From an uncultured bacterium (GTDB lineage Bacteria > Babelota > Babeliae > Babelales > Vermiphilaceae): a DNA stretch of 64,000 nt. The notes under the pieces were generated by a model. It saw only the letters and a list, made by a program, of their open reading frames with translations, searched no databases and was not told the origin of the DNA. This document shows, piece after piece, positions 9,718 through 48,525 of the stretch (positions are counted from its first letter, which is position 1; every line of letters starts with the position of its first letter). The position numbers and the translations under genes were made by a program. The stretch is from contig OY969561.1 of assembly GCA_963701085.1 (NCBI GenBank), forward strand, positions 1,056,001 to 1,120,000. The letters run 5' to 3'.

Positions 9718-9868
9718 CCCTTCGATACTTTTTTGCAAGCAAAAAAACTCAGGGTGATACAGCGATACATTTTTGAGGACAAAAATACTCAGTATGAGCG
9801 GAAAGAAGTCTATCGTGATTTCCTTCCTCCGCTCACCCTGAGTGCCCCATTAGGGGTGTATCGAAGGG
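9718..9868. repeat. Cluster of three family-A-related REP-like units between convergent genes
   Basis: cccttcgatac-[hairpin]-actcagggtga (9718-9757); cgatac-[hairpin]-actcagtatgagcgg (~9764-9801); inverted ccgctcaccctgagt-[hairpin]-gtatcgaaggg (9829-9868). Confidence 0.8.
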
Positions 9869-24482: not shown

Positions 24483-26018
24483 ATGAAAACAATATTTCAT
24501 AAGAAGTTTCTCTACTACATTTTAAGTTGCTATAGTTACTCAGCGAATTTTTCATTAGCGCTCGCCCTGAACAGTTTTATCCCCATCTTCAGTTCCTTTC
24601 AATGGGGTCCCCGGTTTGGAGTGAAACGAAAACTGGGGCAAAAGGGTGTCTTCGAGCGCTCGAGGATATCCTTTTGCCCCAGTTTTCGTTTTATTCCAAT
24701 CGGGGTCCCCATCAAGAGAAGTCGAAGATGGGGTGAGCTGACGAGCGCGGGGAATAAAGGGCAAGACTATTGGTTGTTATTATATTGTTTGTTAAGCATT
24801 GGTGCATTGTCGTATGCAGATGATATGCCTTTTAAACTTGGTGTTGAAAATATTCCCACTTCATTATTTAAAAAAATCTGTCCTCATAAAAAAAATGATT
24901 CTTGCATGGTTGGTTTAATCACCAATCAGACCGGTGTTGATCAAAAAGGTGTGCGAACAATTGATATTCTTGTGCAGCGCGGATGCGCATTGCGGTATAT
25001 TTTTGCTCCAGAACATGGGTTGAATGGTGTTCTTGCCGAGCGTGATGTGCACGATTCTGTTGATAAAAAAACAGGTGTTCCGATTATTAGTTTGTATGGC
25101 AATGGTTCGGGAAAAATGATTGCACCTGAGTATTTGAATAACATTGATTTTTTAATATTTGATATTCAAGATTCTGGCATGCGCCACTATACCTATATTT
25201 CTACACTGCTTAACACCATGAAAATCGCCGCAGAACATAATAAACCATTTGTGGTGTTAGATAGACCTAATCCATTGGCAACAGTTATGGAGGGCCCTCT
25301 TGTTGCTCCCGAACTTATCTCATTTATTTCCATTGCCCCGATTCCATTACGTCATGGCATGACCATTGGCGAACTTGCATGGTATTTTAATAAACATGTT
25401 TTAGATAAACCGGCAGTGTTGCACGTGGTTAAAATGAAAAATTATGATCGTACACAAGGTTTTGTTGGTGAACTTGTGCATCAATTATCACCAAATCTGC
25501 AATCACTACAATCATGTTATGGCTACAGTTTTTTAGGATTATTGGGAGAAATAGAACCGTTTGATGTTGGTGTTGGTACACCTATGGCGTTCCGTTGTAT
25601 TGCATTACCAGAAAGCATGCACGTGCCGCATGGTGTATGGGAACGGTTGCAAACAATACTCAGTTCATTTGGGGTGCAAAGTTTTCCATATCACCATGTT
25701 AATACAAAGAATAAAAAGAAGAATAGAGGATTGCGGTTGGAGTTTTCTGATGTTAATGATCTGCATGCATTTGAGCTTTTTATTACGATTTTGCAGTTTT
25801 TTAAAAAAGAGAAGATAACATTTTCTTTTTCAGCGGCGTTTAATAAAGCGGTGGGGACTAAGGATGTACAAGAATTAATTGCGGGAAATGTGTCCGAGCG
25901 CCAGTTTTTTAGACAAATACATAAAGATTTGCAACGCTTTCACCGGCGTGCGCAATCTTCATTCTTTTACCAACCAGCACCCGTAATTGCGTGTAAATCT
26001 TTGATCACCTCTTTGTGA
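24483..26018 (+). CDS. namZ: Exo-beta-N-acetylmuramidase NamZ (DUF1343/YbbC) family, with a palindromic insert in the N-terminal leader
   Basis: VGLITNQTGVD, FAPEHG, PIISLYG, FDIQDSGMRHYTYISTL, VLDRPNP, RHGMTIGELA. Confidence 0.88.
   Translation: MKTIFHKKFLYYILSCYSYSANFSLALALNSFIPIFSSFQWGPRFGVKRKLGQKGVFERSRISFCPSFRFIPIGVPIKRSRRWGELTSAGNKGQDYWLLLYCLLSIGALSYADDMPFKLGVENIPTSLFKKICPHKKNDSCMVGLITNQTGVDQKGVRTIDILVQRGCALRYIFAPEHGLNGVLAERDVHDSVDKKTGVPIISLYGNGSGKMIAPEYLNNIDFLIFDIQDSGMRHYTYISTLLNTMKIAAEHNKPFVVLDRPNPLATVMEGPLVAPELISFISIAPIPLRHGMTIGELAWYFNKHVLDKPAVLHVVKMKNYDRTQGFVGELVHQLSPNLQSLQSCYGYSFLGLLGEIEPFDVGVGTPMAFRCIALPESMHVPHGVWERLQTILSSFGVQSFPYHHVNTKNKKKNRGLRLEFSDVNDLHAFELFITILQFFKKEKITFSFSAAFNKAVGTKDVQELIAGNVSERQFFRQIHKDLQRFHRRAQSSFFYQPAPVIACKSLITSL
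24558..24748. repeat. ~190-bp composite hairpin: family-A element with matching inserts in both arms
   Basis: gcgctcgccctgaac...tcgagcgctcga (24652-24663)...gacgagcgc; arms pair, e.g. aaacgaaaactggggcaaaagg with ccttttgccccagttttcgttt. Confidence 0.9.
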
Positions 26019-33152: not shown

Positions 33153-33202
33153 CCTGTCCTTCGTCCTTCGACAAGCTCAGGATGAGCGGAGAGCGAAGTA
33201 GG
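33153..33202. repeat. Family-B unit with a nested family-A unit, downstream of nrdB
   Basis: cctgtccttcg[tccttcgacaagctcaggatgagcggag]agcgaagtagg. Confidence 0.8.
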
Positions 33203-33583: not shown

Positions 33584-34684
33584 ATGTTGAAAAAAATAAC
33601 GAACTGTTCATTACTGATATTATCATTCTTATTCATGGCGCATGGCATGAATCATGCCGCTCAATTTCTTAAATCACCTGAGGTTCAGGAGTTGGAAAAT
33701 GTTGTTGGTCAAGCTGTTAGTAATTCTGCAGTGCAGGATGAAGCGAAAAATATTTTTAATGAAATTACTCACAACACATCGAGTATATCAACGACTACTA
33801 CAACGACCACTAATTCAACTTTGCCTACAGTACCGAGTATATTAATTAATGGTCAAGAGGAGTCTAAAAAGAGTCCAGTACCTAATTTGGATTTAGGTTC
33901 CTTTTTGTCTCCCACGAGAGCTACGAGCACCTCAATACCAAAAACACCGATTCATAACGCTAGGCAACTATCACACAATGTTGCAAATGCAAAAAGAGCA
34001 CAAACAGAGCGTAGTGCACGGGCAAGTAGCAATGGAGGCTCTCAGGATGTTGTTATTAACATGGCCAATATGCCAAAAAGAAATATGTTATCTCAATCAT
34101 CACCTCCCATTCAAGATAATGCTTTAATAGATGATTTGGCAGCAATGGAGAAAAAATATTTACCTAACGAGGTATGGGGATTTGTAGCTAAAGCGAATCC
34201 TGTTCTTCACAAATTTGCACAAGATCATAATTTATCTTTGGATGATTTTTTGATGTTTGCTGATTTGAAAAATCAATTTGATGTTTCTCCGCAGGCTGTT
34301 GTTGATCAGATAAAAAATAAATTGCCTGATGATAAAAAAATAGCTGATTGGAAGCAACGTGAAAAGTATGAGAAGATAAAAAAAAATAATCCGGACAAAT
34401 ATGAAGAAATAATTTTGGAAATTTTTAAAGATGTTCTTGATCAACAAGATGGTCAAGGTAAGCCATCAGCGTTTGCTGATACGCATATTGATTTGTTAGA
34501 AGGGCAGGTTGCTGAAGATCAGAACACTAAGCGTAATTTATGGATAGCGGTGGCTGTTAAAGCAGTAATGCTTGTTGCGGGCCTTGCGGGAACTTTAGCC
34601 TGGGGTGCTTATGGTCAAGCGCATACACCGAGCACTGCACCGACTCATGCTCCAACTTTCGCTCCTACTTTTGCTCCAGTATAA
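33584..34684 (+). CDS. Secreted or membrane-anchored hypothetical protein
   Basis: gaggag RBS, signal peptide, C-terminal TM helix and APTx repeats. Confidence 0.7.
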   Translation: MLKKITNCSLLILSFLFMAHGMNHAAQFLKSPEVQELENVVGQAVSNSAVQDEAKNIFNEITHNTSSISTTTTTTTNSTLPTVPSILINGQEESKKSPVPNLDLGSFLSPTRATSTSIPKTPIHNARQLSHNVANAKRAQTERSARASSNGGSQDVVINMANMPKRNMLSQSSPPIQDNALIDDLAAMEKKYLPNEVWGFVAKANPVLHKFAQDHNLSLDDFLMFADLKNQFDVSPQAVVDQIKNKLPDDKKIADWKQREKYEKIKKNNPDKYEEIILEIFKDVLDQQDGQGKPSAFADTHIDLLEGQVAEDQNTKRNLWIAVAVKAVMLVAGLAGTLAWGAYGQAHTPSTAPTHAPTFAPTFAPV

Positions 34685-35116
34685 TTATCTATATACTTTG
34701 TTGATCAATGTTGTGAGAGCTTTTTCCGTTAATGGGCCGCCATCATAGCGGCCTATTTCTTTGCCGTTGCGTAAAAATATGAGCGTTGGAATGCTGGTGA
34801 TTTTGAAATCAGCCGATAGATCTAAGAAAAAGTCGCGATTTATTTTAATGAACCTGATATTTGGCATTACTCCTGCAACGGTTTCAACGATTGGCGATAG
34901 CCGTCTGCATGGTCCACACCAATCAGCATAAAATTGGAGAATTACGTTGCCAGTGCTGCTGAATGATTTGAGATGTGTTTGTGAAGAACCGGCTGTTTTT
35001 TTCTGGTCATGTAAATAAAAGATGTTGGTTATGGGGTTGTTGTTATTGCAAAAGAGTAAACAGGTGAATATAGGTGCTAGTAAAAGCATGACTATGAGTA
35101 AGCGTTTGTTTTTCAT
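34685..35116 (-). CDS. Thioredoxin-family protein with N-terminal signal or anchor
   Basis: FYADWCGPCRRL, SIPTLIFLRNGKE. Confidence 0.9.
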   Translation of the reverse strand: MKNKRLLIVMLLLAPIFTCLLFCNNNNPITNIFYLHDQKKTAGSSQTHLKSFSSTGNVILQFYADWCGPCRRLSPIVETVAGVMPNIRFIKINRDFFLDLSADFKITSIPTLIFLRNGKEIGRYDGGPLTEKALTTLINKVYR

Positions 35117-35299
35117 AATATTCTCATTATTTAATGTATGTGTCCTTATTATTAGCGTATATTTATTTTCTATTTTCGCAAATGGGGTCTCAAAAAGCCT
35201 TGTTAATGCTGTTTTTATGGGAAAATGGCTGTATACTGAGGGTATATAGGGATTTTTGGGGGGTTAAAAAGTTCCATTTCTTGTTAAATGTTCTTTCCT

Positions 35300-35693
35300 C
35301 GCGCTCGTCCTGAGTTTGTCGAAGGATATCTTCGAGCGCAGTATTAAGAGTTAAATATGCAAAATTACTTTTATCTGTATATTTTAAAATGTGTTAATGG
35401 TGCCTATTATGTAGGGCATACAGATAATATTGAACAGCGTCTGTCAGAGCATCATTTGGGTGTAATTAGTAATTGTTATACAAAAAATAAAAGACCTTTA
35501 GAGCTTGTGTTCCTACAGGATTTTCCTACAAGGGATGCTGCATTTCATGCAGAGCGCCAAGTTAAAGGATGGTCTCGTAAGAAAAAAGAAGCATTGATGA
35601 GAAGCGATTGGGAAGAAATAAGACAATTAAATGTTTTACATAAGAAACAAAGATCGCTCGAGGATATCCTTCGACAAACTCAGGACGAGCGCG
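35300..35693. mobile_element. GIY-YIG cassette 1 bounded by 39-bp inverted repeats (35300-35338 and 35655-35693)
   Basis: cgcgctcgtcctgagtttgtcgaaggatatc(t/c)tcgagcg in inverted orientation, 38/39 match, around the nuclease ORF. Confidence 0.8.
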
Positions 35694-35704
35694 GGGAAGA
35701 ATAG
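35357..35704 (+). CDS. GIY-YIG nuclease (YhbQ/UPF0213 type)
   Basis: YLYILKCVNGAYYVGHTDNIEQRLSEH..YTKNKRP..AERQVKGWSRKKKEAL; reads through the right IR. Confidence 0.93.
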   Translation: MQNYFYLYILKCVNGAYYVGHTDNIEQRLSEHHLGVISNCYTKNKRPLELVFLQDFPTRDAAFHAERQVKGWSRKKKEALMRSDWEEIRQLNVLHKKQRSLEDILRQTQDERGEE

Positions 35705-35742
35705 GATTTGTTTGTTGAAGAATTAGAATAATATGGAAAAGT

Positions 35743-36405
35743 ATGAATAAGCATGATAAAGCGGCATTAATAGAGCAATTGCTCGCGTATGTGACGGATA
35801 ATAAGCGTGAAAAAATGCAGGCAGTGCTTGTAAACCGCACTCGTTATATTACCGTTATCTTGGAAGATCTCTTTCAGCCGCACAATGCGAGTGCTGCATT
35901 GCGTACCTGTGATATTTTTGGAGTTCAGGATGTTCATGTGGTGGAGGCAAAACATACTTTTAAAGCAATTCCAACCATTGCTATGGGATCATCAAAATGG
36001 GTTGATGTGTATTCTTATTCATTAATCACCGATTCAATTACTGAGCTGAAAAAGCAGGGGTATCGAATAGTTGCAACAACACCACATACTGATTGTTACG
36101 AGCTACCAAATTTGCCACTTGATCAAAAAACAGCACTTGTTTTTGGTAGTGAACAAACCGGGTTATCGGAGGCTGCTTTAGCCCAGGCTGATACGTTTGT
36201 TAAAATACCCATGTATGGCTTTGTGGAAAGTTTTAATGTATCTGTGAGCGTTGCTCTTTGTTTGTATGATGTTATTAATAGATTACATCGTTCATCATAT
36301 GTATGGCAGCTTTCTGAGGACGAAAAGCACGATATCATGCTTGCATGGATTCGTAGGATATCTCAAACGGCAGCATTGCTTGAAAAAGCAGAAAAATTGG
36401 ATTAA
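35743..36405 (+). CDS. trmH: TrmH-family tRNA 2'-O-methyltransferase (SpoU)
   Basis: LEDLFQPHNASAALRTCDIFG, ALVFGSEQTGLS, IPMYGFVESFNVSVS. Confidence 0.88.
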   Translation: MNKHDKAALIEQLLAYVTDNKREKMQAVLVNRTRYITVILEDLFQPHNASAALRTCDIFGVQDVHVVEAKHTFKAIPTIAMGSSKWVDVYSYSLITDSITELKKQGYRIVATTPHTDCYELPNLPLDQKTALVFGSEQTGLSEAALAQADTFVKIPMYGFVESFNVSVSVALCLYDVINRLHRSSYVWQLSEDEKHDIMLAWIRRISQTAALLEKAEKLD

Positions 36406-36420
36406 AAAAATTGGATTAAA

Positions 36421-36450
36421 AAAAAAGAGGAGCTGAAATGCTCCTCTTTT
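36421..36450. terminator. Bidirectional intrinsic terminator
   Basis: aaaaaagaggagc-tgaaat-gctcctctttt between convergent genes. Confidence 0.85.
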
Positions 36451-36473
36451 AAATTCTTATAAATAACTAAAAT

Positions 36474-36872
36474 TTAGTTACTGTCTGTTGCATATTCGTC
36501 ATCGCCAAAGATATCTTCATCAGCGTTAACATCTTGCGCATTGTATGCTTGTTGTAATTGGTACGCTGCATATGCTGCTGCAACTAATACCATAGTGCGA
36601 CCAATGTAATTGTTGTTAACATATGCTTGAAAATTTCCACCTTGTAGGTAGCTAATTTTTGTAAGTTGATTTAAAAATAAAGGATTAACAGCCCAGTTAA
36701 CGATTAAGTCTGTTGCGTCAACAGTGTATTTTGCTGCGAAAGCAAAAGGAGCTTTTGCTAAGTTAATTACTTCCGAAAAAAAATTAGATTGAGTTGAAGT
36801 TGTGTTATCCATAGAAAACACAGAAGAAGCTGTAAATAAAACTGAGAGTAATGCAATACGTGATATGTTCAT
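36474..36872 (-). CDS. Secreted or membrane hypothetical protein
   Basis: aagga RBS; signal peptide ending VFS-MD. Confidence 0.65.
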   Translation of the reverse strand: MNISRIALLSVLFTASSVFSMDNTTSTQSNFFSEVINLAKAPFAFAAKYTVDATDLIVNWAVNPLFLNQLTKISYLQGGNFQAYVNNNYIGRTMVLVAAAYAAYQLQQAYNAQDVNADEDIFGDDEYATDSN

Positions 36873-37015
36873 AGAGAGTCCTTCAGTATAGAGATTATAA
36901 TTGATGACACTGTTTTATACTTCATTGTGAAGTATCTTGACCTAAATCGTATCCGGAAAACGGCTTTGTGTCAACGGGGGGTAAAAAGGGAAAGAGGGTA
37001 TGGCTATAACCTTGT

Positions 37016-37435
37016 TCATGCGCGCGCATAGATACATTTACCATAGTGCTTAATTGAATAACTAAGCGTAGATTGATCGTTTGAATAATCATCAAATTCT
37101 TCTTTGGTGTAAACCAAAATATTTTTGGCAATTTTAACACCAATAAGAGCTTTATGTCCTTCAGCCATAAGAGCATATCGCTGTTGAAGACCAGCCATAT
37201 CATCATTTACAATTACCAGGATACCAATATCAATAGTATCTTCTCGCTGCGGTTCTAATAAATAAATTTCACGAGGGTTATATGTTTTAACAAGTCGTTT
37301 TGTGATTTCTTCTATTGTTTTTTGATCTAGTTGTTGCGTTTCCACAATGATTACCTCAACATTAAATTGATCTGTATAATAAATATACTTTATCGTTAGT
37401 TTATAGGTTATACAAACTCTTATGGAGACATTCAC
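37016..37435 (-). CDS. Minimal nucleotidyltransferase (MNT)-like protein, degenerate
   Basis: IEEITKRLVKTYNPREIYL...DIGILVIV...NILVYTKEEF..IKHYGKCIY resembles MNT antitoxins, but the FGS motif is missing; start uncertain. Confidence 0.6.
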   Translation of the reverse strand: MNVSIRVCITYKLTIKYIYYTDQFNVEVIIVETQQLDQKTIEEITKRLVKTYNPREIYLLEPQREDTIDIGILVIVNDDMAGLQQRYALMAEGHKALIGVKIAKNILVYTKEEFDDYSNDQSTLSYSIKHYGKCIYARA

Positions 37436-37436
37436 A

Positions 37437-37550
37437 ATGAGCAGTAGATTTGCTAAGGATTTAAAGGCATCGCTTAAAGAAGCTATTGCCTATGAGAAAG
37501 CTGGCCTGCCAGCCGTAGCTTTACGCGAAATAAATAATTTTGATTTTTAG
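37437..37550 (+). pseudogene. Possible truncated HigA/XRE-type antitoxin N-terminus running into a family-B repeat
   Basis: ggag RBS; MSSRFAKDLKASLKEAIAYEKAG followed by repeat-derived codons and a stop. Confidence 0.35.
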
Positions 37551-37671
37551 TCTGCCCGCCGTCGCTAAAGCTATGGCGGACAGCTTTCGCCATTTATTGT
37601 AAGTATTTTTTTTGAATTTGTATCCAACCTTTAAAAAAGCTGGCTTGCCAGCCGTAGCTTTACGCGAAGGC

Positions 37672-37674
<3 letters not shown>
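37497..37674. repeat. Three family-B palindromic units at the tRNA-Arg 3' end
   Basis: aaagctggc(c/t)tgccagccgtagctttacgcgaa at 37497-37529 and 37636-37668 (32/33); inverted ctgcccgccgtcgctaaagctatggcggacag at 37552-37583. Confidence 0.85.
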
Positions 37675-37748
<74 letters not shown>

Positions 37749-37796
37749 ATCTCATGATTATTAATTATACCAACAAATTTCAAAAAATCATTAGAA

Positions 37797-39296
37797 TTAA
37801 TAGCTTATTGGGATAAATAATTTAATAAACTCAGCGGTAATAGTGTGTATCTGTTTTTGCAGTTCATCTGATATATCCTGTGTTTGGGCGATGGTAGTAT
37901 AAACATTGGGATAGACAGATTTGATATAACTTACGCATTGAAGTGCAAAAGGGTTGACTTGGTTGAGGGCGATGGAATCAAGAAAACCTTCTTTTAAGAA
38001 TAAGAGCATAAGCGCTTGATCAACAAATGAAAATGTTATGTATTGAGGTTGTTTGAGAAGCTCAATTGCACGTTTGCCGCGTTCAAGTTGCCGGTGTGAT
38101 ACTTCGTCCAGTTCAGCGCCAAATTGAGCAAATGCAAGTAGCTCTTGATATTGGGCAAGTTCTAGACGTAAAGCGCGGGTCATTTTTTTAACTGCTTTGG
38201 TTTGCGCAGCTCCACCAACACGAGAAACTGATAACTCAGCGTTTACTGCAGGGCGAATTCCCTGATTAAAGAGGTTGGTATCAAGAAAAATTTGGCCATC
38301 GGTGATAGAAATAAGGTTTGTTGGGATATATGCGGTAATATCATCACCTTGAATTTGTACAATAGGCAATGCCGTGATGGAACCACCTTTTGCTAATTTT
38401 CCTGCACGTTCAAGCAATCGGGAATGGAGATAAAAAACGTCTCCTGGGTAAGCTTCTCGGCCTGGTGATCGTCGCAGGAGGAGTGACATTTCACGAAATG
38501 CTATAGCATGATTGCTCAGATCATCATATACAATGAGCACATCTTTGCCTTGATCGCGGAAATATTCAGCAATAGTGCATCCAACATAAGGAGCAAGATA
38601 TTGACTCAAGACTGCATCGCCAGAATCAGCACTAATAATAACTGAATATTCAAGCGCACCATTTTTTTCTAATAATGAAACAAGTCGAGCTAAGTTTGCT
38701 TGGCGTTGTCCAATGGAGACATAGATACAAATGACGTTTTTGTCTTTTTGATGCAAAATTGTATCAATCACTATTGATGATTTACCCGTACTTCTGTTAC
38801 CGACAATCAGTTCTCGCTGTCCTTTTCCGATAGGAACTAAGACATCAATTGCCAGAATACCAGTTTCGAGGGATTCATTTACGGGAGATCGCTCCATAAT
38901 ACCAGGAATATCTGTTTCTATAGGACGAAATTCTGTTGTATTAAGATCGCCAGCACCATCGCATGGTAATCCTTCAGCGGTTATAACACGGCCAAGCAGC
39001 GATGAGCCAACAGGAGTTGTAAATACTGAATGAGATCTCTTTGCTGTTTCAAGTTCTGCAACCGGAATTGATCTATCAATTAAAAAAATAGCAGCTGAGT
39101 TTTCATTGAGCTGAAAAACAATACCGCTATTTCCGCCTTCAAAGGTGATCAGTTCACCAAGCATGGCATGTGATAAACCATATACCGTACAAATGTTATC
39201 GCCAACGCGAATAACGGTACCAATTTCTTGGAGTTGTTCTTCTGGTAAATCACGCAGTGATCGTTCAAAGAGTGATATGAGATCAGTGTTTTTCAT
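37797..39296 (-). CDS. atpA: F0F1 ATP synthase alpha subunit
   Basis: [61 protein letters not shown]. Confidence 0.97.
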
Positions 39297-39309
39297 ATTT
39301 TTTTGCTTT

Positions 39310-39855
39310 CTATTTTTCTAACTTCTGCAAGGTTTGCAGATGCTTGCGTACTGAATATTCCCAGAGATAATCATCGCTTTGCAATCTGAGGCCTGCAATA
39401 AGTGATGGATCAAGGGAAGGTGTACCGGTAATGTTTTTATTAAGTAATTGCCCAAGGAATTTTTTAATTGATTCAATTTGTTTTTCATGAAGATTGTGAG
39501 CGCTTTTAAGAGAAAATTCAACGTTGTTAGTTTGGTTATTATAGAGCTTGATAATACAGAATAGTACATCAGGGATGTAAAAAGAGCGATCGTGTGTAAT
39601 AAGTAGCAACATAATTGCTGATAGCTGATGCGGTAAAGAGAAGTGTCCAATAAGGTCAGCAATCATTGATTTTTTTCTTTTTTGGTCAAACTGTGGTAAT
39701 TGCAAGAAAAGTAGCGTTTGCTTATGTTTTTGTAAAAATTTTTGCGCTATGAAGATTTTTCCTATATCAGCAAAAGAGCACGCTTTGGGGAAAACAGTCA
39801 TAAAAGCAGCAGCGTATTTTTTTGAAATATTTCTATCAATAGGTGTGTAATTCAC
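39310..39855 (-). CDS. atpH: ATP synthase delta subunit
   Basis: SKKYAAAF..., DPSLIAGLRL..WEYSVR; lies between atpF and atpA. Confidence 0.85.
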   Translation of the reverse strand: MNYTPIDRNISKKYAAAFMTVFPKACSFADIGKIFIAQKFLQKHKQTLLFLQLPQFDQKRKKSMIADLIGHFSLPHQLSAIMLLLITHDRSFYIPDVLFCIIKLYNNQTNNVEFSLKSAHNLHEKQIESIKKFLGQLLNKNITGTPSLDPSLIAGLRLQSDDYLWEYSVRKHLQTLQKLEK

Positions 39856-40349
39856 GATATTCTTTCATCCATAAAGTGAAGAATTGAATTAAGATACGCT
39901 GATCCCTGCTGTTGATCTTTAAATTGAGTAGAAAGAGATTTTTTTACATCAGCAACAACAGTTTGAGTGATAATATTTTTAACGCGGCTATGTTCACGTT
40001 GAATAGCATTATAAGCCATGCGCTTGTGTACGATTGCTACGGTGCTATTGTGTTCTTTTTCTTGATATTCCCGTTCAAGAGCAACTGCTTTTTTCCACTC
40101 ATCAATTTTTGATCTAAATTTTTCACATTGCAAGGCATCTGTTTTGAGAAGAATATCAAGATTTAATTGTTGTTTTTCAAGATGCGCTTGTTGTAAAAAG
40201 AGAGAATCTTGCATCTCCTTTTTTCGTGCTATGCTTAAAAAAAGGTCAGGCATAACATGTTTTTTAAAAAGAATAAAACCAACGCTGAGTAGAGCGGCAA
40301 AGTTGATGAGTCTAAACGCGATGGCAATAATGTCTTGATTAGTGAACAT
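39852..40349 (-). CDS. atpF: ATP synthase subunit b
   Basis: FRLINFAALL N-terminal TM plus coiled coil; operon position. Confidence 0.75.
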   Translation of the reverse strand: MFTNQDIIAIAFRLINFAALLSVGFILFKKHVMPDLFLSIARKKEMQDSLFLQQAHLEKQQLNLDILLKTDALQCEKFRSKIDEWKKAVALEREYQEKEHNSTVAIVHKRMAYNAIQREHSRVKNIITQTVVADVKKSLSTQFKDQQQGSAYLNSILHFMDERIS

Positions 40350-40713
40350 GTTTTATTTTTTCCTCTATAATGCCGTGTACGTCAGCGATTATATGCGCTA
40401 TGTCTGTGGGTGATAATTCAGCAGGTGCGGCAATACTGTTTTCTGTATCGTCTACAAAGAACGGTATTTCTTTAGGAAGATGTGGTTGATGCGTGTTAAA
40501 GTATTCCTGACAAATGTGCCAGTGGCGTTGCCGTTCTTTTTCTTGAATTTCAAGGCTTTTTTTCTGTTGATCAATGATATCAATCATAGCATTTTCCTGG
40601 GCTTTTTCATGCTCAATAACGCTGACGACTGGTTTAAATAAAAAAAATCGCACCATCCAATAGACAATAAAAAAATTGAACGCTTGGACAAAAAGTGTTG
40701 CATTTATATTCAT
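40339..40713 (-). CDS. ATP synthase subunit b'
   Basis: MNINATLFVQAFNFFIVYWMVRFFLFKPV; operon position. Confidence 0.75.
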   Translation of the reverse strand: MNINATLFVQAFNFFIVYWMVRFFLFKPVVSVIEHEKAQENAMIDIIDQQKKSLEIQEKERQRHWHICQEYFNTHQPHLPKEIPFFVDDTENSIAAPAELSPTDIAHIIADVHGIIEEKIKHVH

Positions 40714-40718
40714 TGAGA

Positions 40719-40973
40719 TCACCCAATTTGAGAGCCAAAGAGTAGCAATGCGCCAGAAATTAAGAGGCAATAGATTGAAGACGATTCTACGATAATAAGT
40801 GCAAAAATCATTGTTGAACGAATTTTATTTGCGCTTTCTGGATACTTGCCAATATTTTCACATGCCTTCATGCCAATGATTCCTTGACCAAGAGCTGGAC
40901 CAAGACTTCCCACGCCCATCGTTATTGCGGCACCGAGAAAAGCAGCTGCTTTTGCATAAAAGATTCCATCCAT
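40719..40973 (-). CDS. atpE: ATP synthase subunit c
   Basis: Two TM helices, GPALGQG, IVESSSIY. Confidence 0.95.
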   Translation of the reverse strand: MDGIFYAKAAAFLGAAITMGVGSLGPALGQGIIGMKACENIGKYPESANKIRSTMIFALIIVESSSIYCLLISGALLLFGSQIG

Positions 40974-41238
40974 GGATGACCCCTTTATTTATAATTATTG
41001 TTGTTATTACCTTCTTTTCCTAGTGTAACGCCTTTTTTTATTTTTTCACAAGAATAATCTTGACAAAAGGCTTATTTTTGACAGAAATCGTTAAAGTTGC
41101 TCTTTGGTTGCAGTGAGGGTAGTATCATTTTTTCTAAAATTTTGTAATAATCATTACTATAACCATCGATATAATGGCATGATTTATCTGTTATTTTTAA
41201 AAAAAATCTGAAATTTAATCAAAGAAATATAAAAAATT

Positions 41239-42915
41239 ATGATGTTTTATCTATTAAATTTAATCTGTTCTGGCCTGTTGTTGTGCAGTACATATTCGCT
41301 ATTTTTACCACATCACATTCACGCAGTTGATAGTAAGCACCTGATAGAAACAAAAGATTTTGATTTTGATACCATTTACTTTGATGAGGATGATGATTAT
41401 CAATTTGAAGAATATCTTGATACTGCCGGTATGGACCATATCTCTCGTGCGATAGATCCTTCACAGGTTATGTCTATTCTTAACCTTCTTAAGGTACCCG
41501 CCATTTTAGAAGAGCCTATTTTCTTGCACACCAATATTCTTAATAAACGCAGTTTGCTTGATCAGCCAATTTTTGAGCCAGATAGAGCAGAATTTCCGGG
41601 CAGCTTGGTTGTTGGTGCCAGTGCATTTGTGCATAAAATAGATCGTTCCAATTTCACTAAACATAGCCTCAAGTTGAAGTCATATATCGCGCTCACTGAA
41701 GCATCATTGATTTCTAAGCTTGAAGATACGCTTACTATATTAGATAAGCTCGCGCCAGGTTCTCTTATTGACGTTGCTAAAATATTTTCTCTTTTTGAGA
41801 ACGTGAGCGTGGAAGAGCGGCAAGTTGGGTTTATGTTGCATTGTATGAAGAGCTGGCGTCATACGACTTTGTTTGTGATGATGCCCATTTATTATCTTGA
41901 AAGTAATTATTCTTTTACTCAAAAAGAGCGGGATGCGATAGCCGAAGAGTTGGGAGCTACAGATCCGGAAGAAGAATGGCGATTTGCACAAGCGCATATT
42001 ATTAGCGATAAAATAGGATTTGGTGATCTACGTATAGAGATTGATAATACTACGCTCAAGCGTCCATCTTATACATTGCGCTGTGGTGGTTTTGCAACCA
42101 TTCCAACAGCATGGATCTGGGGAGGAGGTTTTGTAGGTTCACGATTTGCCAAACCTTCAACATTACCAACTCTTGAATTAGATCCTTTTTTTGATGCACT
42201 CGAAAATCCTAGTTTAGGTAAGCAGGATATTAATAAAATTATAGCTGAGTTACTTTTTGATAGTTTGGACCGTGTTGATGCTGATCTTCTTGATGTCCCT
42301 CTTGGTAATAATAAACATCTTGGTATTGGTGGTTATGTACGGGGGAAGTTGCCCTTGCGGCATTATATGAGCACAACGTTTGCTGATAGGATGCACTTGG
42401 CGAGTCGTATATCCTTGGAGTTACAATTTCCTGCAACAGAAAAACGTTTTTATATTAACAAAATTAATGAAGCTGCTTTTGCTGATCGTAATTTTGAAGA
42501 TCTTGATCCTGATGTTGCTGCGGCAAATTTACAATTTCTTAAAGAGCAGGCTATTTCGCGGCTTTTCTTGCGTGCATTTGATACACGCATTATCCCGGGT
42601 GTTATTTTTCGTGCATCGGGAGGCCTGTATTATAAAGGACAAGCATGGGGCTTCAATTTAGGGCCAGATTTTTGGTTGCAGAATAAAGCTCACTTTTCAA
42701 CAATATACGCTCCCGCAAAAACAGTTCATATGCTCGATATTCCCAAAGCAAAGCAGTCTATTGCGTATCAGGCTAAAATTTATGGTGGCATTGTTTTTAA
42801 GCATAAAACAGAAAGAAGTACATGGATTTTTTCACTGAATGCGGATGCTTCACTCTTTGAGCGAGGACTTGGTCAGGATTATACGCTTTCCTTTAATTTT
42901 GAATCAAGCTTTTAA
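41239..42915 (+). CDS. Secreted protein, possible outer-membrane beta-barrel
   Basis: 558-aa ORF, hydrophobic N-terminus, C-terminal YTLSFNFESSF. Confidence 0.65.
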   Translation: MMFYLLNLICSGLLLCSTYSLFLPHHIHAVDSKHLIETKDFDFDTIYFDEDDDYQFEEYLDTAGMDHISRAIDPSQVMSILNLLKVPAILEEPIFLHTNILNKRSLLDQPIFEPDRAEFPGSLVVGASAFVHKIDRSNFTKHSLKLKSYIALTEASLISKLEDTLTILDKLAPGSLIDVAKIFSLFENVSVEERQVGFMLHCMKSWRHTTLFVMMPIYYLESNYSFTQKERDAIAEELGATDPEEEWRFAQAHIISDKIGFGDLRIEIDNTTLKRPSYTLRCGGFATIPTAWIWGGGFVGSRFAKPSTLPTLELDPFFDALENPSLGKQDINKIIAELLFDSLDRVDADLLDVPLGNNKHLGIGGYVRGKLPLRHYMSTTFADRMHLASRISLELQFPATEKRFYINKINEAAFADRNFEDLDPDVAAANLQFLKEQAISRLFLRAFDTRIIPGVIFRASGGLYYKGQAWGFNLGPDFWLQNKAHFSTIYAPAKTVHMLDIPKAKQSIAYQAKIYGGIVFKHKTERSTWIFSLNADASLFERGLGQDYTLSFNFESSF

Positions 42916-42920
42916 TCTAC

Positions 42921-43811
42921 ATGTGTAATATGGTAATAAAAAGAATAGAGATAAGAAGATTGGCATATTGTTTGAAAAAGGAGAGTCAATTGAAGAGAAT
43001 AATGTGTGTATTACCATTACTCGTTAGTGCGCTCATAATATATCCATCAGAAAAAAATATTATGCTTGAATCATCAGTAATAAAAGTAGCAGATGGCACG
43101 TTTCTTAATGCCGATAAAATAGAGTTTATTAGAAAATTTCGTCGAACATTACTTACGTTTATTTTTGGTGACCAGCTCTCTAATAATCAACGCAAGGGTA
43201 AGTACTTCTTTTGTGGTAAGTGGCATGGTGTAGAGTCTCTTGCCCGCATTGAGCAAGAATTGGCTACTTCAACACGCAAAGAAGATGTTGAAAAACGACT
43301 TGCAATTGAAGAATTGTTAACGCACGCTAAAGCGGATTTTATTGTCCAATCAAGTGAATTTATCGAAAGTGGACGTGGTGCAAAAAACATTATGGTTGTG
43401 CTTATTCAAGAAGATTGTCAAAAGCGTAATCGCCTGGATAGTTTGTTGTTAGATTGGGCTAAGACCAAAGAAGGGCAAGAATCAACAATGTTTGAACGTC
43501 AGATCACCAGTTTTGGTCATTATTATTATTTTTTGACTGATTTGGTGAATTTTTTATTGGATCTTGTCCATAGTTGTCCCAAAGCAGAAAAACAGTTTAA
43601 AGATCGTGTTGCAAAGTGGAGTGCTGTTAAAGCGATACTACCAACTGTGTTAAAAAAAGCGCATGTAAAAAATGAGTATGTTAATGAAATTGAATTTCTT
43701 AAATATCTTAAAGAGCGGTATCTTGATTCAATAATGCTGAATGAGATTACTCCTCAGGTTATTGTTCCTTTATTAACAGAATATATAAAACATACGAATG
43801 CACATGCCTGA
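42921..43811 (+). CDS. Hypothetical protein
   Basis: 296-aa ORF overlapping the recD2 start; start uncertain. Confidence 0.65.
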   Translation: MCNMVIKRIEIRRLAYCLKKESQLKRIMCVLPLLVSALIIYPSEKNIMLESSVIKVADGTFLNADKIEFIRKFRRTLLTFIFGDQLSNNQRKGKYFFCGKWHGVESLARIEQELATSTRKEDVEKRLAIEELLTHAKADFIVQSSEFIESGRGAKNIMVVLIQEDCQKRNRLDSLLLDWAKTKEGQESTMFERQITSFGHYYYFLTDLVNFLLDLVHSCPKAEKQFKDRVAKWSAVKAILPTVLKKAHVKNEYVNEIEFLKYLKERYLDSIMLNEITPQVIVPLLTEYIKHTNAHA

Positions 43812-46092
43812 AATTGAATCCTTACAAGGAGTTGTTGATCGCGTTATTTATCAAAATCAAGAAAATGGCTTTGCTGTTTTTGTTATCCAACTGAACGCAA
43901 AAAATAGTGTTACTGTCAAAGGATGTGTGCCGACAATTACTGCTGGCGAACAGGTATTGGTGAGCGGCGTTTGGAATATGCATCAAAAATTTGGCAAACA
44001 GTTTGATGCGCAATCATGTGAAAAGCAGGCGCCGACTTCTATTCTTGGTCTTAAAAAATATTTGGGTTCGGGGCTTATCAAAGGTATTGGTCCGGTTTAT
44101 GGTGATAAGCTGGTAGCAGCTTTTGGTGAAAAAGTTCTTGAAGTTATTGATCAACATCCTGAGCGTCTTATGTCTGTTCCCGGTATTGGTGCTAAGCGTG
44201 TTGAAAAAATTGTCACTGCCTGGAAAGATCAAAAAGAGATTTCCAACATCATGGTTTTTTTGCAAAATAAAGGAATTTCTTCTACCTATGCAGTAAAAAT
44301 TTATAAGCAGTACAAAGAAAACGCTATTGCTATTATTGAGGAAAATCCATATCGCCTTGCACAAGATATGTGGGGTATTGGTTTTAAGACTGCTGATCAG
44401 ATAGCGCAAAAAAGTGGTATTGCTCCTGATTGTAAGCGACGCATTGTGGCAGCAATTTTACATGTTATTCAGACAACATCGAGTGATGGTAATTTGTATA
44501 TACAGCTCGAATTGCTTAAAAAAGAGATGGCAGAGTTGCTTGAGTTGGAACTTGAAGGCATTCAGCATACAACAAAATGTGCGCTGCATGATCTGTATAA
44601 TGCTGATAAAATAAAATTATTAACGCATAACGATATTCATTATATTACGTTGCCTTCATTTTATTTTTCTGAAAAAGGTATTGCGCATAAAATTGATAAA
44701 ATGGTCACATCGGCACCACATCATACATTTGATTTGGAGAAAATAAAAAAAAATTTATGGAATGATTCCTGTTTAAATCATTCTTCCCGCGCTCGTCCTG
44801 AACCTGTTGAAGGATGTCCCCGAGCGCTCGAAGAAACCCTTCAACAAGTTCAGGGCGAGCGCAAGGAGATGCATAACAATGGTATTGCCCTTAATGAACA
44901 GCAGCAGGAAGGTGTGCTCGCCTGTTTGCAGCACAAAGTTACTATTATTACTGGTGGCCCGGGAACGGGTAAAACAACACTTATTAAAAAATTATTAATG
45001 CTGCTTGATCTACAACGAGTTAAATATGCACTTGCAGCCCCAACAGGAAGAGCGGCAAAACGTATTACGGAAGGCACAGGAAGGCCCGCTTCTACTATTC
45101 ATCGGTTGCTTGATTTTGATGTAAGTACCATGTCTTTTAGATACAATGAATCCCATCCTCTTGCGGTTGATTATCTGATTGTTGATGAAGCATCGATGAT
45201 TGATGTGTTTCTTGCGAACGCATTGATTAAAGCATTGCCAGCATCGGCACATCTTGTGTTGATTGGTGATATTGATCAGTTGCCATCAGTTGGTGCGGGT
45301 AATTTTTTACATGATATGATTGCGAGTAAAAAAATTGCCACCATAAGTCTTAAGCATATATTTAGGCAAGCGCAAGATAGCCTTATTATTATTAATGCCC
45401 ATCGTATTAACAATGGAGAATTCCCAACGACGGAACATGAAAATTCGCGCAAAGATTTTATTTTTATTAAAGAAGATAATCCAGAAAATATACCAATGCA
45501 TTTGGAAGCTATTTATAGTAAAGCATTACGTCATTATGGCATCCACAAAGATGATACAATTGTACTCACACCGATGCATCGTGGCGTTGCAGGAACACAA
45601 AAATTAAATCATGATTTGCAACAGCTGTTGAATGGTAATAATGGTGGACCGGCTGTTGGGTATGCAGGAGCGCAGTTTCAGGTTGGTGATCGAGTGATGC
45701 AGCTGCGTAATAATTATGATAAAAATGTGTTTAATGGTGATATTGGGGTTATTGAAAGCATTAATGCAGAAGATAAAATAGTGCACGTACGTTTTTTTGA
45801 AAATATTGTTGATTATGAAACATCAGATCTTAATGAATTGGTGCATGCGTATGCAATTTCTATTCATAAAAGCCAAGGATCTGAATTTTCTGCCGTTATT
45901 ATTCCGGTTTTTATGCAGCATTTTATGATGCTGCAACGAAATTTACTGTATACCGCCGTTACGCGTGCAAAAAAATTATGTATAATCATAGGGCAATCGC
46001 GTGCTATTGCAATGGGAATAAAAAATAATAAAAGCAGCGAGCGTATTACGTTTTTACAACAATTTTTGACAACAGATTTAGCATGCCGATAA
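43798..46092 (+). CDS. recD2: ATP-dependent RecD-like DNA helicase RecD2 (carries an in-frame palindromic insert)
   Basis: YLGSGLIKGIG HhH, ENPYRL..GIGFKTAD, TGGPGTGKTT, APTGRAAKR, VDEASM, GDIDQLPSVG, IHKSQGSEF, YTAVTRAK. Confidence 0.95.
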   Translation: MHMPEIESLQGVVDRVIYQNQENGFAVFVIQLNAKNSVTVKGCVPTITAGEQVLVSGVWNMHQKFGKQFDAQSCEKQAPTSILGLKKYLGSGLIKGIGPVYGDKLVAAFGEKVLEVIDQHPERLMSVPGIGAKRVEKIVTAWKDQKEISNIMVFLQNKGISSTYAVKIYKQYKENAIAIIEENPYRLAQDMWGIGFKTADQIAQKSGIAPDCKRRIVAAILHVIQTTSSDGNLYIQLELLKKEMAELLELELEGIQHTTKCALHDLYNADKIKLLTHNDIHYITLPSFYFSEKGIAHKIDKMVTSAPHHTFDLEKIKKNLWNDSCLNHSSRARPEPVEGCPRALEETLQQVQGERKEMHNNGIALNEQQQEGVLACLQHKVTIITGGPGTGKTTLIKKLLMLLDLQRVKYALAAPTGRAAKRITEGTGRPASTIHRLLDFDVSTMSFRYNESHPLAVDYLIVDEASMIDVFLANALIKALPASAHLVLIGDIDQLPSVGAGNFLHDMIASKKIATISLKHIFRQAQDSLIIINAHRINNGEFPTTEHENSRKDFIFIKEDNPENIPMHLEAIYSKALRHYGIHKDDTIVLTPMHRGVAGTQKLNHDLQQLLNGNNGGPAVGYAGAQFQVGDRVMQLRNNYDKNVFNGDIGVIESINAEDKIVHVRFFENIVDYETSDLNELVHAYAISIHKSQGSEFSAVIIPVFMQHFMMLQRNLLYTAVTRAKKLCIIIGQSRAIAMGIKNNKSSERITFLQQFLTTDLACR
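44789..44862. repeat. 74-bp family-A hairpin inserted in frame in recD2
   Basis: 69/74 identical to the murE copy; encodes ARPEPVEGCPRALEETLQQVQGER. Confidence 0.95.
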
Positions 46093-46748
46093 AAAAAATA
46101 ATTTTTTGTTTATGCATCATGGGCATAACCTTGCCTATTATTGTACGGGAAAAACAACCACGTATTGTTGTTATTGATCCTGCTGGTGATGCTAAACGTA
46201 CTGGTAGACGCATTGGTGATAGTTTTGAGCGTGGTCTGACATTGCAGTGTGTTGAAAAAATAAAAGAGATCATTGGAGAACGTGCTCCGCATATTAAAGT
46301 TGTTCTGACGCGCATGCCGGGTGATAATGTGTATGACTTACAAAATGCATCTTTGTCTAATCGCATTCATGCAGATCTTTTTGTGAGTCTCAATTTTTAT
46401 CATACGCAAGAAACTAAGCCTACTCTGTATCTGTACCAATTTTCTTATGGCAATGATTTTGCATGTTGTCAGCAAGGTTTAACATTACAGAGCTATGACC
46501 AGGCATATAGAATTAATAAAGAGACAACTGATGCGATGTGTCAGTTGTTTCAAAAAGAGCTTTTGCAACAAAAATACCATTCGCTTTGTACAGTTGCAGG
46601 GCCTTATCATTTGCCGATAAAACCATTAATTGGTATTGTCGCACCAAGTATTGCGGTTGAAGTGGGATTAAAAGGTAAAGATTTGTGGCATTATTATAGT
46701 GAGCCGTTGGCAAATGCTATTATTACCATTGTTGATGAGTTGGAATAA
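46083..46748 (+). CDS. N-acetylmuramoyl-L-alanine amidase-like protein (Amidase_3 fold), catalytic His residues apparently lost
   Basis: IVVIDPAG, ERGLTL, KVVLTR, ADLFVSLN, PSIAVEVG. Confidence 0.75.
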   Translation: MPIKKIIFCLCIMGITLPIIVREKQPRIVVIDPAGDAKRTGRRIGDSFERGLTLQCVEKIKEIIGERAPHIKVVLTRMPGDNVYDLQNASLSNRIHADLFVSLNFYHTQETKPTLYLYQFSYGNDFACCQQGLTLQSYDQAYRINKETTDAMCQLFQKELLQQKYHSLCTVAGPYHLPIKPLIGIVAPSIAVEVGLKGKDLWHYYSEPLANAIITIVDELE

Positions 46749-46814
46749 GCGATCAGATCTTTTTTGTAAAGAGTGAATATAATAATATGGTATCTATCAA
46801 AGTAGATTATGTCC

Positions 46815-47222
46815 TTCCCGCGCTCGTCCTGAACTTGTTGAAGGATGTCCTAGAGCGCTCTTAATAGAGATAATAAATATGCAAAATCATTTTTACATGT
46901 ACATTTTAAAATGCATAAATGGTGCATATTATGTTGGACATACAGATAATATTGATAAAAGAATGTCCGAACATAATTTAGGTTTAATTAGTGGTTGTTA
47001 TACTAAAAATAAATGGCCCCTAGAGCTTGTGTGTCTTGAAGTTTTTTCAACGAGAGATGATGCATTTCATGCGGAGAGACAAGTTAAAGGTTGGTCGCGC
47101 AAGAAAAAAGAAGCTTTTATACAAAATGATTGGGACAAAATTAAAAAACTTAATTTTTTACAAAAATAATGATGGGGAGCGCTCGAGGACATCCTTCAAC
47201 AAGTTCAGGACGAGCGCGGGAA
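46815..47222. mobile_element. GIY-YIG cassette 2 bounded by 46-bp inverted repeats (46815-46860 and 47177-47222)
   Basis: ttcccgcgctcgtcctgaacttgttgaaggatgtcct(a/c)gagcgctc in inverted orientation, 45/46 match. Confidence 0.82.
46879..47169 (+). CDS. GIY-YIG nuclease (YhbQ/UPF0213 type), paralog of 35357-35704
   Basis: YMYILKCINGAYYVGHTDNIDKRMSEH..AERQVKGWSRKKKEA; 71/96 aa identical by manual alignment. Confidence 0.93.
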   Translation: MQNHFYMYILKCINGAYYVGHTDNIDKRMSEHNLGLISGCYTKNKWPLELVCLEVFSTRDDAFHAERQVKGWSRKKKEAFIQNDWDKIKKLNFLQK

Positions 47223-47245
47223 AGCAAGAATAATTTGAGGTAACC

Positions 47246-47791
47246 ATGAATAATATCTCTCGTTCTCATATAATCATCGTCAGCACCTCTTTTATATCAG
47301 CACTCCTTTTTTTTGCCATATATAACCAATGGATATTATTCCGTGCACCTTGGAGCGCGAATTATGGTAGTGATAGTGCATCAGTTATACAAAAGAAACA
47401 GGTGACGCATTATTATTTTCATGGTGATAAGTGGAAAACAGAAAAGCAGGAATTGTTGTGGACAGAAAGTGTTGAGAAAAATATTTTTCAACTTATCAAT
47501 GCGTGGCTTACGCTTTTAGATGAAGAGCACATCACGGCAAAGAAAACAATGCTGCAGTCGGCATTGATCTCAACAGCCGGCTGTGTGTATCTCTCTTTTG
47601 ATCATAATATTTTGGGTAAAGAAGAGACGATTTTTAGAAAATGGATGCTTATTGAGGGATTACTTAAAACAATCATCTTACATGATATTCCCATTAAAAA
47701 CGTACAATTTCTTGTCCAACACCAGCCGCTCCACGATGCTCATCTTGATTTTTCTCTGCCATGGCCAATTCATGGATTTATAAAAAGCTAA
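47246..47791 (+). CDS. GerMN-domain-like membrane protein
   Basis: N-terminal TM; VYLSFD...LLKTI...KNVQFLV...HLDFSLP; follows an amidase gene. Confidence 0.55.
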   Translation: MNNISRSHIIIVSTSFISALLFFAIYNQWILFRAPWSANYGSDSASVIQKKQVTHYYFHGDKWKTEKQELLWTESVEKNIFQLINAWLTLLDEEHITAKKTMLQSALISTAGCVYLSFDHNILGKEETIFRKWMLIEGLLKTIILHDIPIKNVQFLVQHQPLHDAHLDFSLPWPIHGFIKS

Positions 47792-47883
47792 ATTAGGTGT
47801 TACTACAATATTCTTATTTTTTTAACTTTATTAATTATACTAACGTATGATTTTTTTGTTTTTTTACCTAGAAGGATAGGTTT

Positions 47884-48525
47884 ATGTATAAGAAGGTAAG
47901 TAGTGGTATTCTTGTTGTTGGTTTTTTTAGTTTATGTGGTGTTACTTTTGGAATGGAGCGGGAGCATGTTTTAATGCAGTTAATGCGGAAAGATATTATT
48001 CCTATTTTGTTGCTGAATGATTATATAATTAATGCTCCAACAGCATATCAGGCTTTGCTCAGAGAGGCATCCCTTGGACAAGATATAATGAAGCCCATGA
48101 TTAACAGTACAAATGAACAAATGAGACAATATTATGAAGAAAAGGGTGTGGTTCATCGAGTCCCTGATGCTAAAACGTGCAAAAGAGTGACAAGTTATTA
48201 TGTACAGAATCCTTGTTTTAGAAAGGCAGCAATTTTGTATCAGAATGAATTTGGATTAGATGCTGCCAATGATTCTAGCGCTTCTCTAAGAATACGTACG
48301 CTGAATTATCGTATTTCTCCCTCAAATTTTAAATCAGTTATGCATTGTGAATATCATCGTATTCTCGAAAATCTTGGTGTATCAATTAAAAAGGATCTTG
48401 TTTTTTGGTTGTCAGATAAATGGAAACCGGTTTTTATTGAGTTATATGCACCGGATGAGCCTTCTGATTGGATCAGAATTGAAAACTATTACGGATACAT
48501 TAATGATAATTGTTTCTGTTTTTGA
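47884..48525 (+). CDS. Secreted hypothetical protein
   Basis: Signal peptide ending TFG-ME. Confidence 0.65.
   Translation: MYKKVSSGILVVGFFSLCGVTFGMEREHVLMQLMRKDIIPILLLNDYIINAPTAYQALLREASLGQDIMKPMINSTNEQMRQYYEEKGVVHRVPDAKTCKRVTSYYVQNPCFRKAAILYQNEFGLDAANDSSASLRIRTLNYRISPSNFKSVMHCEYHRILENLGVSIKKDLVFWLSDKWKPVFIELYAPDEPSDWIRIENYYGYINDNCFCF

Follow-up and report, generated by a model that had tools for sequence, protein, structure and literature searches.

The stretch of DNA analyzed here, 64,000 nucleotides in length and hereafter called the window, covers bases 1,056,001-1,120,000 of the single-contig genome (1,198,634 bp, 37% G+C) of an uncultured bacterium of the Vermiphilaceae (Dependentiae). 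It contains two genes predicted to encode small GIY-YIG nucleases, each of which is bracketed by inverted copies of a hairpin-forming repeat, and the question raised by this locus is whether the nuclease mobilizes the hairpins. We give a probability of roughly 55% to the reading that gene and repeats form a mobile cassette, consisting of the gene for a hairpin-specific nuclease and two inward-facing cognate hairpins, and that the dispersed gene-less dimers of the hairpin are non-autonomous relatives of this cassette. That the enzyme mobilizes the hairpins, as proposed in the initial annotation of the window, we infer by analogy with a sister nuclease family.

Two nuclease cassettes and their hairpin unit

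Open reading frame (ORF) calls, Pfam searches and alignment all agreed with the initial annotation in placing two GIY-YIG genes within the window; the products are identical at 71 of 96 residues, and the genes share 78% nucleotide identity. With their flanking hairpin units, referred to as arms, they make up the following features:

35295-35338, + strand: left hairpin unit (arm) of cassette 1, an inverted repeat with the loop variant GAGTTTGTCGA
35357-35704, + strand: GIY-YIG nuclease gene 1, 115 aa (Pfam PF01541, E 1.3e-17)
35655-35698, - strand: right hairpin unit of cassette 1, inverted, 42/44 identical to the left arm
46806-46860, + strand: left hairpin unit of cassette 2, loop GAACTTGTTGA, predicted fold -7 kcal/mol
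46879-47169, + strand: GIY-YIG nuclease gene 2, 96 aa (Pfam PF01541, E 2e-18)
47177-47231, - strand: right hairpin unit of cassette 2, inverted, 50/55 match to the left arm

The arms had been described as near-perfect inverted repeats over 38/39 and 45/46 positions; longer extension gave arms of 44 nt in cassette 1 and 55 nt in cassette 2, with slightly lower match. The arm-to-arm spacing is exactly 316 nt in both cassettes. Nuclease gene 1 has lost its stop codon before the right arm, such that the ORF runs through the arm, and alignment identifies a tail of 19 arm-encoded residues in its product. The two arms of each cassette carry common private variants, though the genes have diverged between cassettes to a synonymous divergence (dS) >1; for example, the loop GAGTTTGTCGA is restricted to the arm pair of cassette 1. 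Private variants common to both arms point to arm homogenization, possibly via a paired (fold-back) intermediate.

The unit present in these arms is a small hairpin with an 11-nt loop of consensus GAGCYTGTCGA, which in this genome is mostly GAACTTGTTGA. Individual arms are predicted to fold alone as single-stranded DNA (ssDNA), with a stem of GCGCTCG plus TCCT, the 11-nt loop, and energies of -7 to -9.5 kcal/mol (z-scores of -1.6 to -2.8); the left arm of cassette 1, which has this stem and loop, lies at the stable end of the range (-9.5 kcal/mol, z -2.4). Among 102 aligned units, 10 of the 11 loop positions are ≥90% conserved, and the five loop-closing base pairs covary. In the same alignment, 87% of cells pair, compared with 65% in shuffles (0 of 500 reached the observed value), and double-sided stem changes number 100 versus 31.6 in shuffles; slid stem controls gave pairing of ≤52%. 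Both arms are present at 41 loci, of which 16 carry one stem sequence twice, 18 carry two different stems (each ≥4/5 paired), and 7 are irregular. The conserved object is a small hairpin with a fixed loop and a stem that is free to vary as long as it pairs, and not a pair of terminal inverted repeats; the arms are complementary to each other because the two units are inverted. The link between nuclease and hairpin proposed in the initial annotation stands, based on the flanks, mobility and correlation presented below, whereas its description of the conserved entity as terminal inverted repeats does not, given the 18 loci with different stems. Some related cassettes (L131 in G010:C1 at ~1200569-1200844, L008, L039, and L051) have much longer perfect inverted repeats, of 73-93 nt, or extending ~70 nt past the unit in G010, and these longer repeats include a second tandem unit or unrelated flank.

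The two proteins matched Pfam PF01541 with 64.2 and 66.9 bits, against a curated cut-off of 22.6 bits. Nuclease 2 is a single-domain protein with nothing outside the GIY-YIG nuclease domain, and AlphaFold2 predicted a strand-strand-helix-strand-helix core (mean predicted local distance difference test score, 88.8). Foldseek analysis of this model ranked the UPF0213 proteins 1zg2 and 1ywl first and second, followed by Slx1 (template modeling score ~0.6, root-mean-square deviation 2.2-2.5 Å), with UvrC and I-TevI matching weakly. By sequence, the protein aligned to 1zg2 (E 1.5e-13), to 1ywl (E 3.9e-11), and to Bacillus subtilis yazA (42.5% identity, E 8e-12). With these as its best matches, the label of YhbQ/UPF0213 type that the initial annotation had given is a reasonable one, and we use “UPF0213-like” to denote similarity, not assignment to a family with a curated model. 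In NCBIfam there was no match above cut-off, the group I intron endonuclease model reaching 16.5 bits (cut-off, 56), and no PADLOC defense model was matched. Residues Y8, Y18, R28, H32, and E66, which we take to be the expected GIY-YIG catalytic positions, are ≥90% conserved among 71 sequences. At E ≤1e-10, the family comprises 1040 clusters (50% identity), and many members in the database exceed 96 residues, an excess that probably comes from ORF calls running into repeats.

The genome encodes four close paralogues of the nuclease, two of them in the window, and all four genes are bracketed by hairpin units. The third paralogue (genome 231646-231942) has a shorter arm variant of the main hairpin. 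The fourth (genome 339150-339440; 58% identical) is bracketed by a split-loop variant, described below, and this pairing recurs in the congeners G007 and G010, which suggests that protein lineage and loop type co-diverge. The three closest paralogues are separated by dS values of 1.17-1.31, with ratios of nonsynonymous to synonymous divergence (dN/dS) of 0.11-0.15, which indicates that they are old and under constraint (purifying selection). A distant GIY-YIG protein of ~80 residues (genome 843888-844091) is encoded without such arms. This protein has the motif ...HNSGGS.HT...RPW..., is kept in a sister genome (L111 and L116 in G007), and falls in its own long-branch clade.

As stated in the initial annotation, the same arms joined without a gene form palindromes within the Mur-ligase and RecD2 genes, and we located both in frame. 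These and the other hairpin-derived features of the window are:

19088-19170, no strand: gene-less palindrome, in frame in the Mur-ligase gene between the middle and C-terminal domains
44783-44868, no strand: gene-less palindrome, in frame in the RecD2 gene, two inverted units with the common center GAGCGCTC
33164-33187, - strand: single hairpin unit, core only, loop GAGCTTGTCGA
24558-24712, no strand: composite of arm fragments and palindrome center, split by another repeat module (direct reading)
1880-1985, no strand: composite of an arm fragment, other repeat modules, and the inner end of the arm (direct reading)

The Mur-ligase ORF spans 18292-19869, with the peptide ...ARPELVEGYPRALEETLQQVQGER... 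in the palindrome region, and the RecD2 helicase ORF spans 43798-46092, with the palindrome located in a linker. Folded as ssDNA, the Mur-ligase and RecD2 palindromes have predicted energies of -26.6 and -28.5 kcal/mol (z -6.4 and -7.4), respectively. The two composites, initially reported at 24558 and 1885, are present, and they are best described as arm fragments split by other repeat modules.

A 24-nt arm core matched six positions in the window at ≤3 mismatches, compared with 0 in 100 shuffles, and 141 positions in the genome at ≤6 mismatches; the latter comprise 38 short inverted pairs, 3 pairs around a GIY-YIG gene, and 59 singles. With a strict loop pattern, we counted 131 units in the 1.2-Mb genome, along with 63 units of a second, split-loop hairpin type. 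The split-loop unit has the form CCTGAGTG-(variable, compensated stem-loop)-GTATCGAAGG, meaning that the 11-nt loop is replaced by an extra hairpin in the same frame; the inner stems are compensated, and one such unit lies at 9837-9867 of the window. At least six palindromes occur deep within long ORFs (5 of the 38 pairs and the one in the Mur-ligase gene). Several dimers are hybrids that combine a GAGCC-loop arm with a GAACT-loop arm, and they recur in an unchanged configuration, which suggests that a dimer is copied as one unit.

Coupling across phyla and mobility

The nuclease and the hairpin are coupled across phyla, and their association is not confined to this genome. We assembled 80 loci at which a protein with 45-76% identity to this one is encoded, from Dependentiae, Chloroflexota/Dehalococcoidia, Sphingomonadales, Burkholderiales, Binatia, and others, and we counted hairpin motifs in the flanks of 78 of these loci, leaving out two with short flanks; pseudo-positions 1.5-2.2 kb away served as controls. 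The motif occurred ≤150 nt upstream in sense orientation at 48 loci, downstream in antisense orientation at 44, and on both sides at 31, far above the 2 and 0 of 268 at control positions. The three closest loci carry a GAAC loop variant that the flank pattern does not capture, yet they have inverted repeats of 31 to 93 nt.

We then compared presence of the nuclease (profile E ≤1e-12) with number of repeats across 251 Dependentiae genomes. The nuclease was identified in 91 of these genomes, including seven of the nine in the same genus, at 1 to 5 copies per genome and with stops in some copies; the loop pattern was identified in 99. Whereas 37 of the 44 genomes with ≥10 units have the nuclease, only 54 of the 207 others do (odds ratio, 15), with exceptions in both directions that are considered below.

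Based on presence and absence at orthologous sites of sister genomes, cassettes and gene-less palindromes are both mobile. In three genomes of the genus (G005, G007, and G009), nothing is inserted at the intergenic site of cassette 2 and the genes on either side almost touch; in G004 and G003, other repeat units occupy this site. The site of cassette 1 is empty by match coordinates in G010 (40-nt gap) and G005 (8-nt gap). The reverse configuration was also found: where G004 and G009 have a cassette in common, this genome has an overlapping stop/start (TAATG), and two further sites, both empty here, are occupied in G007 and G010 by cassettes of the fourth-paralogue type. The Mur-ligase and RecD2 palindromes are absent from all four congeners that were directly aligned (G001, G005, G007, and G010), and flank matches suggest that they are missing from all ten congeners. 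Where G006 has a cassette, the orthologous position here holds a gene-less palindrome, but of another arm subtype; because of this mismatch we read the two as independent insertions and rejected conversion of one into the other.

The intergenic gap at 46749-46805 of the window and the orthologous gaps in G003 and G004 contain different repeat types that were inserted independently across the genus, and such independent hits mark this gap as an insertion hot spot. The sole Rfam match within 34000-48500 of the window is a tRNA gene at 37675-37748 on the - strand. At the scale of the whole genome, GC skew forms a clear V that bottoms out near 1.01 Mb and peaks near 0.38-0.42 Mb, which places the window just past the likely origin. 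A 50-kb region (genome ~385,000-433,000) is rich in diverged paralogous segments, and a 2-kb segment is present in three copies with 86-90% identity (10135-12193 vs 473042-477552).

Candidate mechanism and alternative explanations

We infer that the nuclease binds and cuts the hairpin from analogy with Ssn, a sister family of GIY-YIG nucleases (cd10448; Chenal et al. 2025, Nat Commun 16:2388, PMC11893778), and from the pattern of conservation in the unit; mobility, the correlation between nuclease and repeats, and the lack of another candidate enzyme point to such cutting as the driver of spread. In the mechanism that we propose, the protein would bind the hairpin in single-stranded or extruded DNA and, as Ssn nucleases do, nick beside it. 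Host replication and repair would then turn the breaks into copying or movement of the sequence between or next to the units, whereby the cassette would spread, and gene-less palindromes would spread in trans. The palindromes are two units joined at a common GCGC-centered dyad, and their role would be like that of hairpin-forming doublets of repetitive extragenic palindromic sequences (REPINs) or miniature inverted-repeat transposable elements (MITEs) for a transposase gene.

Profile searches for other enzymes covered five families (Y1_Tnp, rve, DDE_Tnp_1, TnpB zinc-ribbon, and Phage_integrase). Within the genome, there was no match to Y1_Tnp (PF01797), rve (PF00665), DDE_Tnp_1 (PF01609), or the TnpB-type PF07282; as a positive control, PF01797 matched in 6 of 14 genomes. 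The Phage_integrase matches are three tyrosine recombinases, all outside and far from the window, in accordance with the initial statement that no DDE, HUH/Y1, or recombinase gene lies within it. Self-BLAST of the genome returned many paralogous gene families, not resolved into insertion sequence (IS) elements. A search for phage or plasmid vehicles yielded only UPF0213/YazA-like matches with 35-48% identity, several of which are probably host DNA.

Several points weigh against the cassette reading. GIY-YIG enzymes are hydrolytic and form no covalent intermediate, and a 96-residue hydrolytic nuclease cannot join DNA, so transposition would need host steps. Divergence of the intergenic flanks and protein linkers was too great for target-site duplications or exact element ends to be defined. 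If the mechanism acted on lagging-strand ssDNA, as in IS200/IS605, a strand bias might be expected; however, single units show none between leading and lagging strands (30 vs 29), and hybrid dimers show no clear trend relative to the replication strand. The p-value of the correlation between nuclease and repeat number is overstated and indicative only, because the genomes are related to one another. Seven genomes with ≥10 units have no nuclease detectable with our profile, and the nuclease-less G005 (98% complete) has 32 units that are 86-92% like the copies in this genome and no more decayed than those of nuclease-bearing sister genomes. In the opposite direction, 31 nuclease-bearing genomes have zero matches to the strict loop pattern, although the split loop or other loop variants may serve in these genomes.

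The alternative that survives best is that the palindromes spread by other means (slippage, recombination, or an unseen enzyme) and that the nuclease gene is a selfish, homing-type passenger, which would cut the palindrome center and be copied in by repair via its own arms. This would account for the location of the gene exactly at the palindrome dyad, with 2 to 8 bp of the GCGC-centered core on both sides, for the larger number of gene-less palindromes than of cassettes (38 vs 3 for this arm type), and for the one site at which G006 has a cassette and this genome has a gene-less palindrome. However, the arm subtypes at the G006 site speak for independent insertions and not for conversion, and for five cassettes the orthologous site is empty and offers no palindrome as a homing target. 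In other phyla, moreover, the gene lies between two separate hairpins with differing stems, which are not halves of one palindrome. Free-standing GIY-YIG homing endonucleases join the nuclease domain to a separate DNA-binding domain, whereas the window protein is a 96-residue nuclease domain alone. We consider a homing passenger unlikely.

We regard as quite improbable the alternative that the protein is a domesticated ssDNA nuclease serving the host, with the hairpins as marks that restrict or shape incoming or recombining ssDNA and with the cassette appearance as a relic. Purifying selection on all paralogues, at dS values that imply long retention, fits such a role, as do the modulation of natural transformation by the sister Ssn enzyme (PMC11893778) and the ordinary chromosomal position of yazA beside a tRNA methyltransferase gene in two Bacillales records. 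A host function is harder to reconcile with the patchy distribution and variable copy number reported above, including copies with stops, with cassettes at non-orthologous sites that have empty counterparts, or with hairpins inside essential genes; the overall pattern looks more selfish than regulated, and the PADLOC search matched no defense model. That common intergenic repeats or terminators came to lie beside nuclease genes by chance is scarcely credible, even in a repeat-dense genome (131 + 63 units in 1.2 Mb) whose intergenic gaps are hit repeatedly by different repeats, given the orientation-specific flanking at 48 and 44 of 78 loci, the identical arm spacing in two cassettes despite the 78% nucleotide identity of their genes, and the pairing of the fourth paralogue with its own repeat variant, also in G007 and G010.

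A broader extension of the cassette reading, possible though doubtful, is that the UPF0213-type nuclease is the missing mobilizing enzyme of the hairpin-repeat class, that is, a hydrolytic “transposase” of <100 residues in at least five phyla, of which YhbQ and YazA would be domesticated descendants. If this were true, the enzyme would have moved itself and gene-less palindromes between and within genomes, including by in-frame entry into essential genes, and the orphan UPF0213 family would gain a function. The cassette reading would also suggest a candidate enzyme behind the in-frame insertion of hairpin repeats into genes, of the kind seen with Rickettsia elements, and the conserved loop would be an obvious candidate substrate for a new site-specific ssDNA nuclease.

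Comparison with known nuclease-repeat systems

The pairing of a nuclease with a repeat, an idea that the initial annotation had treated as potentially new, was already in print for Ssn (PMC11893778). As described in the text of Chenal et al., SsnA is a 94-residue GIY-YIG protein that cleaves ssDNA next to the NTS hairpin; homologues of ssnA are bracketed by hairpin “Ssn-related motifs” (SRM), which are dispersed repeats, and 81% of genomes with >200 motifs encode an Ssn homologue (PMC11893778). There, the authors liken NTS-ssnA-NTS to an insertion sequence and to IS200/IS605 REP-associated transposases, and the Ssn enzyme modulates natural transformation (PMC11893778). For SsnA and NTS in Neisseria, a role in restricting or shaping incoming or recombining ssDNA has been proposed. 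The system described here resembles Ssn/NTS in that a single-domain GIY-YIG protein of ~95 residues is encoded between inverted dispersed hairpins, and in that its presence tracks repeat number. It differs in its conserved 11-nt loop, compared with the 3-5-nt loop and 5′ GTC tag of the Ssn motif, and in the fusion of units into long palindromes that enter ORFs. In addition, mobility was seen here by empty sites, whereas it is not described in the passages of PMC11893778 on which this comparison draws.

As a stand-in for Neisseria meningitidis SsnA, we used as an anchor an Ssn-type gene with canonical NTS flanks, taken from NTS-rich genomes. The window protein aligned to this anchor with 43 bits (38% identity over 69 residues) and to a YhbQ-like protein with 52 bits. 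The published Ssn criterion is a BLASTP match to SsnA at E <1e-10 with ≥75% query cover (PMC11893778); when Ssn-type queries were aligned against the ORFs of this genome, the best E value was 1.6e-9, short of 1e-10, and with NTS-flanked Ssn-type proteins from G152 and G273 as stand-ins for SsnA it was 2.3e-9. In a small tree (117 columns, long branches flagged), six Ssn-type proteins, of which two are NTS-flanked and three more have hairpin inverted repeats, formed a separate clade (100/97) that none of the 47 rows of the window family joined. The main family clade in this tree (97/83) also holds the only UPF0213-like row, which has a long branch, and three basal rows have no resolved placement. 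The whole genome contains 0 matches to the SRM pattern as published, versus 1-2 in five shuffles, and by that definition the repeat falls outside SRM. One Sphingomonas genome contains cassettes of both the Ssn type and the UPF0213-like type, and the two types have separate hairpins. The Ssn-type genes L120, L123, and L113 (Sphingomonas G032 and Dehalococcoidia G033) have flanking hairpins that differ from the canonical NTS, for example GTTCCCCGGCGAAGGCCGGGGTCCAT.

The best sequence and fold matches of the window protein are UPF0213 proteins (YhbQ of Escherichia coli and YazA of B. subtilis; structures 1zg2 and 1ywl). Unlike the genes described here, yazA is annotated beside a tRNA methyltransferase gene in two Bacillales plasmid records. 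Our literature search found neither a function nor a repeat association reported for UPF0213, nor a description of this nuclease-hairpin pair, and the main text of PMC11893778 makes no mention of UPF0213, cd10456, YhbQ, YazA, or Dependentiae.

REPtrons, in which the transposase is a Y1/HUH-type REP-associated tyrosine transposase (RAYT), share with the cassettes a single gene between inverted hairpin repeats, the dispersal of gene-less repeat dimers, and, likely, recognition of the hairpin in ssDNA. Unlike RAYTs, the protein encoded here has a GIY-YIG fold, and no Y1_Tnp domain was matched in the genome; moreover, the nuclease is multi-copy and patchily distributed, whereas RAYTs are reported to be mostly single-copy and vertically inherited. 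CGTC-tagged REPs are described as having an unpaired CGTC/TGTC tag, an 8-9-bp stem, a 4-5-nt loop, and a CCA tail, and they are said to be without a dedicated transposase (Di Nocera et al. 2013, PMC3733652). Like those repeats and Rickettsia palindromic elements, the units described here are short hairpins found in many phyla, frequently as inverted dimers and sometimes within genes (PMC3733652); unlike the CGTC-tagged REPs, they have CGTC within the stem and a loop of 11 nt. Compared with the Ssn system, from which the nuclease-repeat concept is already known in the text of Chenal et al. (PMC11893778), what appears to be new here is a clade outside Ssn with its own hairpin, and our reading would extend that 2025 discovery to a second, UPF0213-like GIY-YIG clade with a different and sharply defined hairpin.

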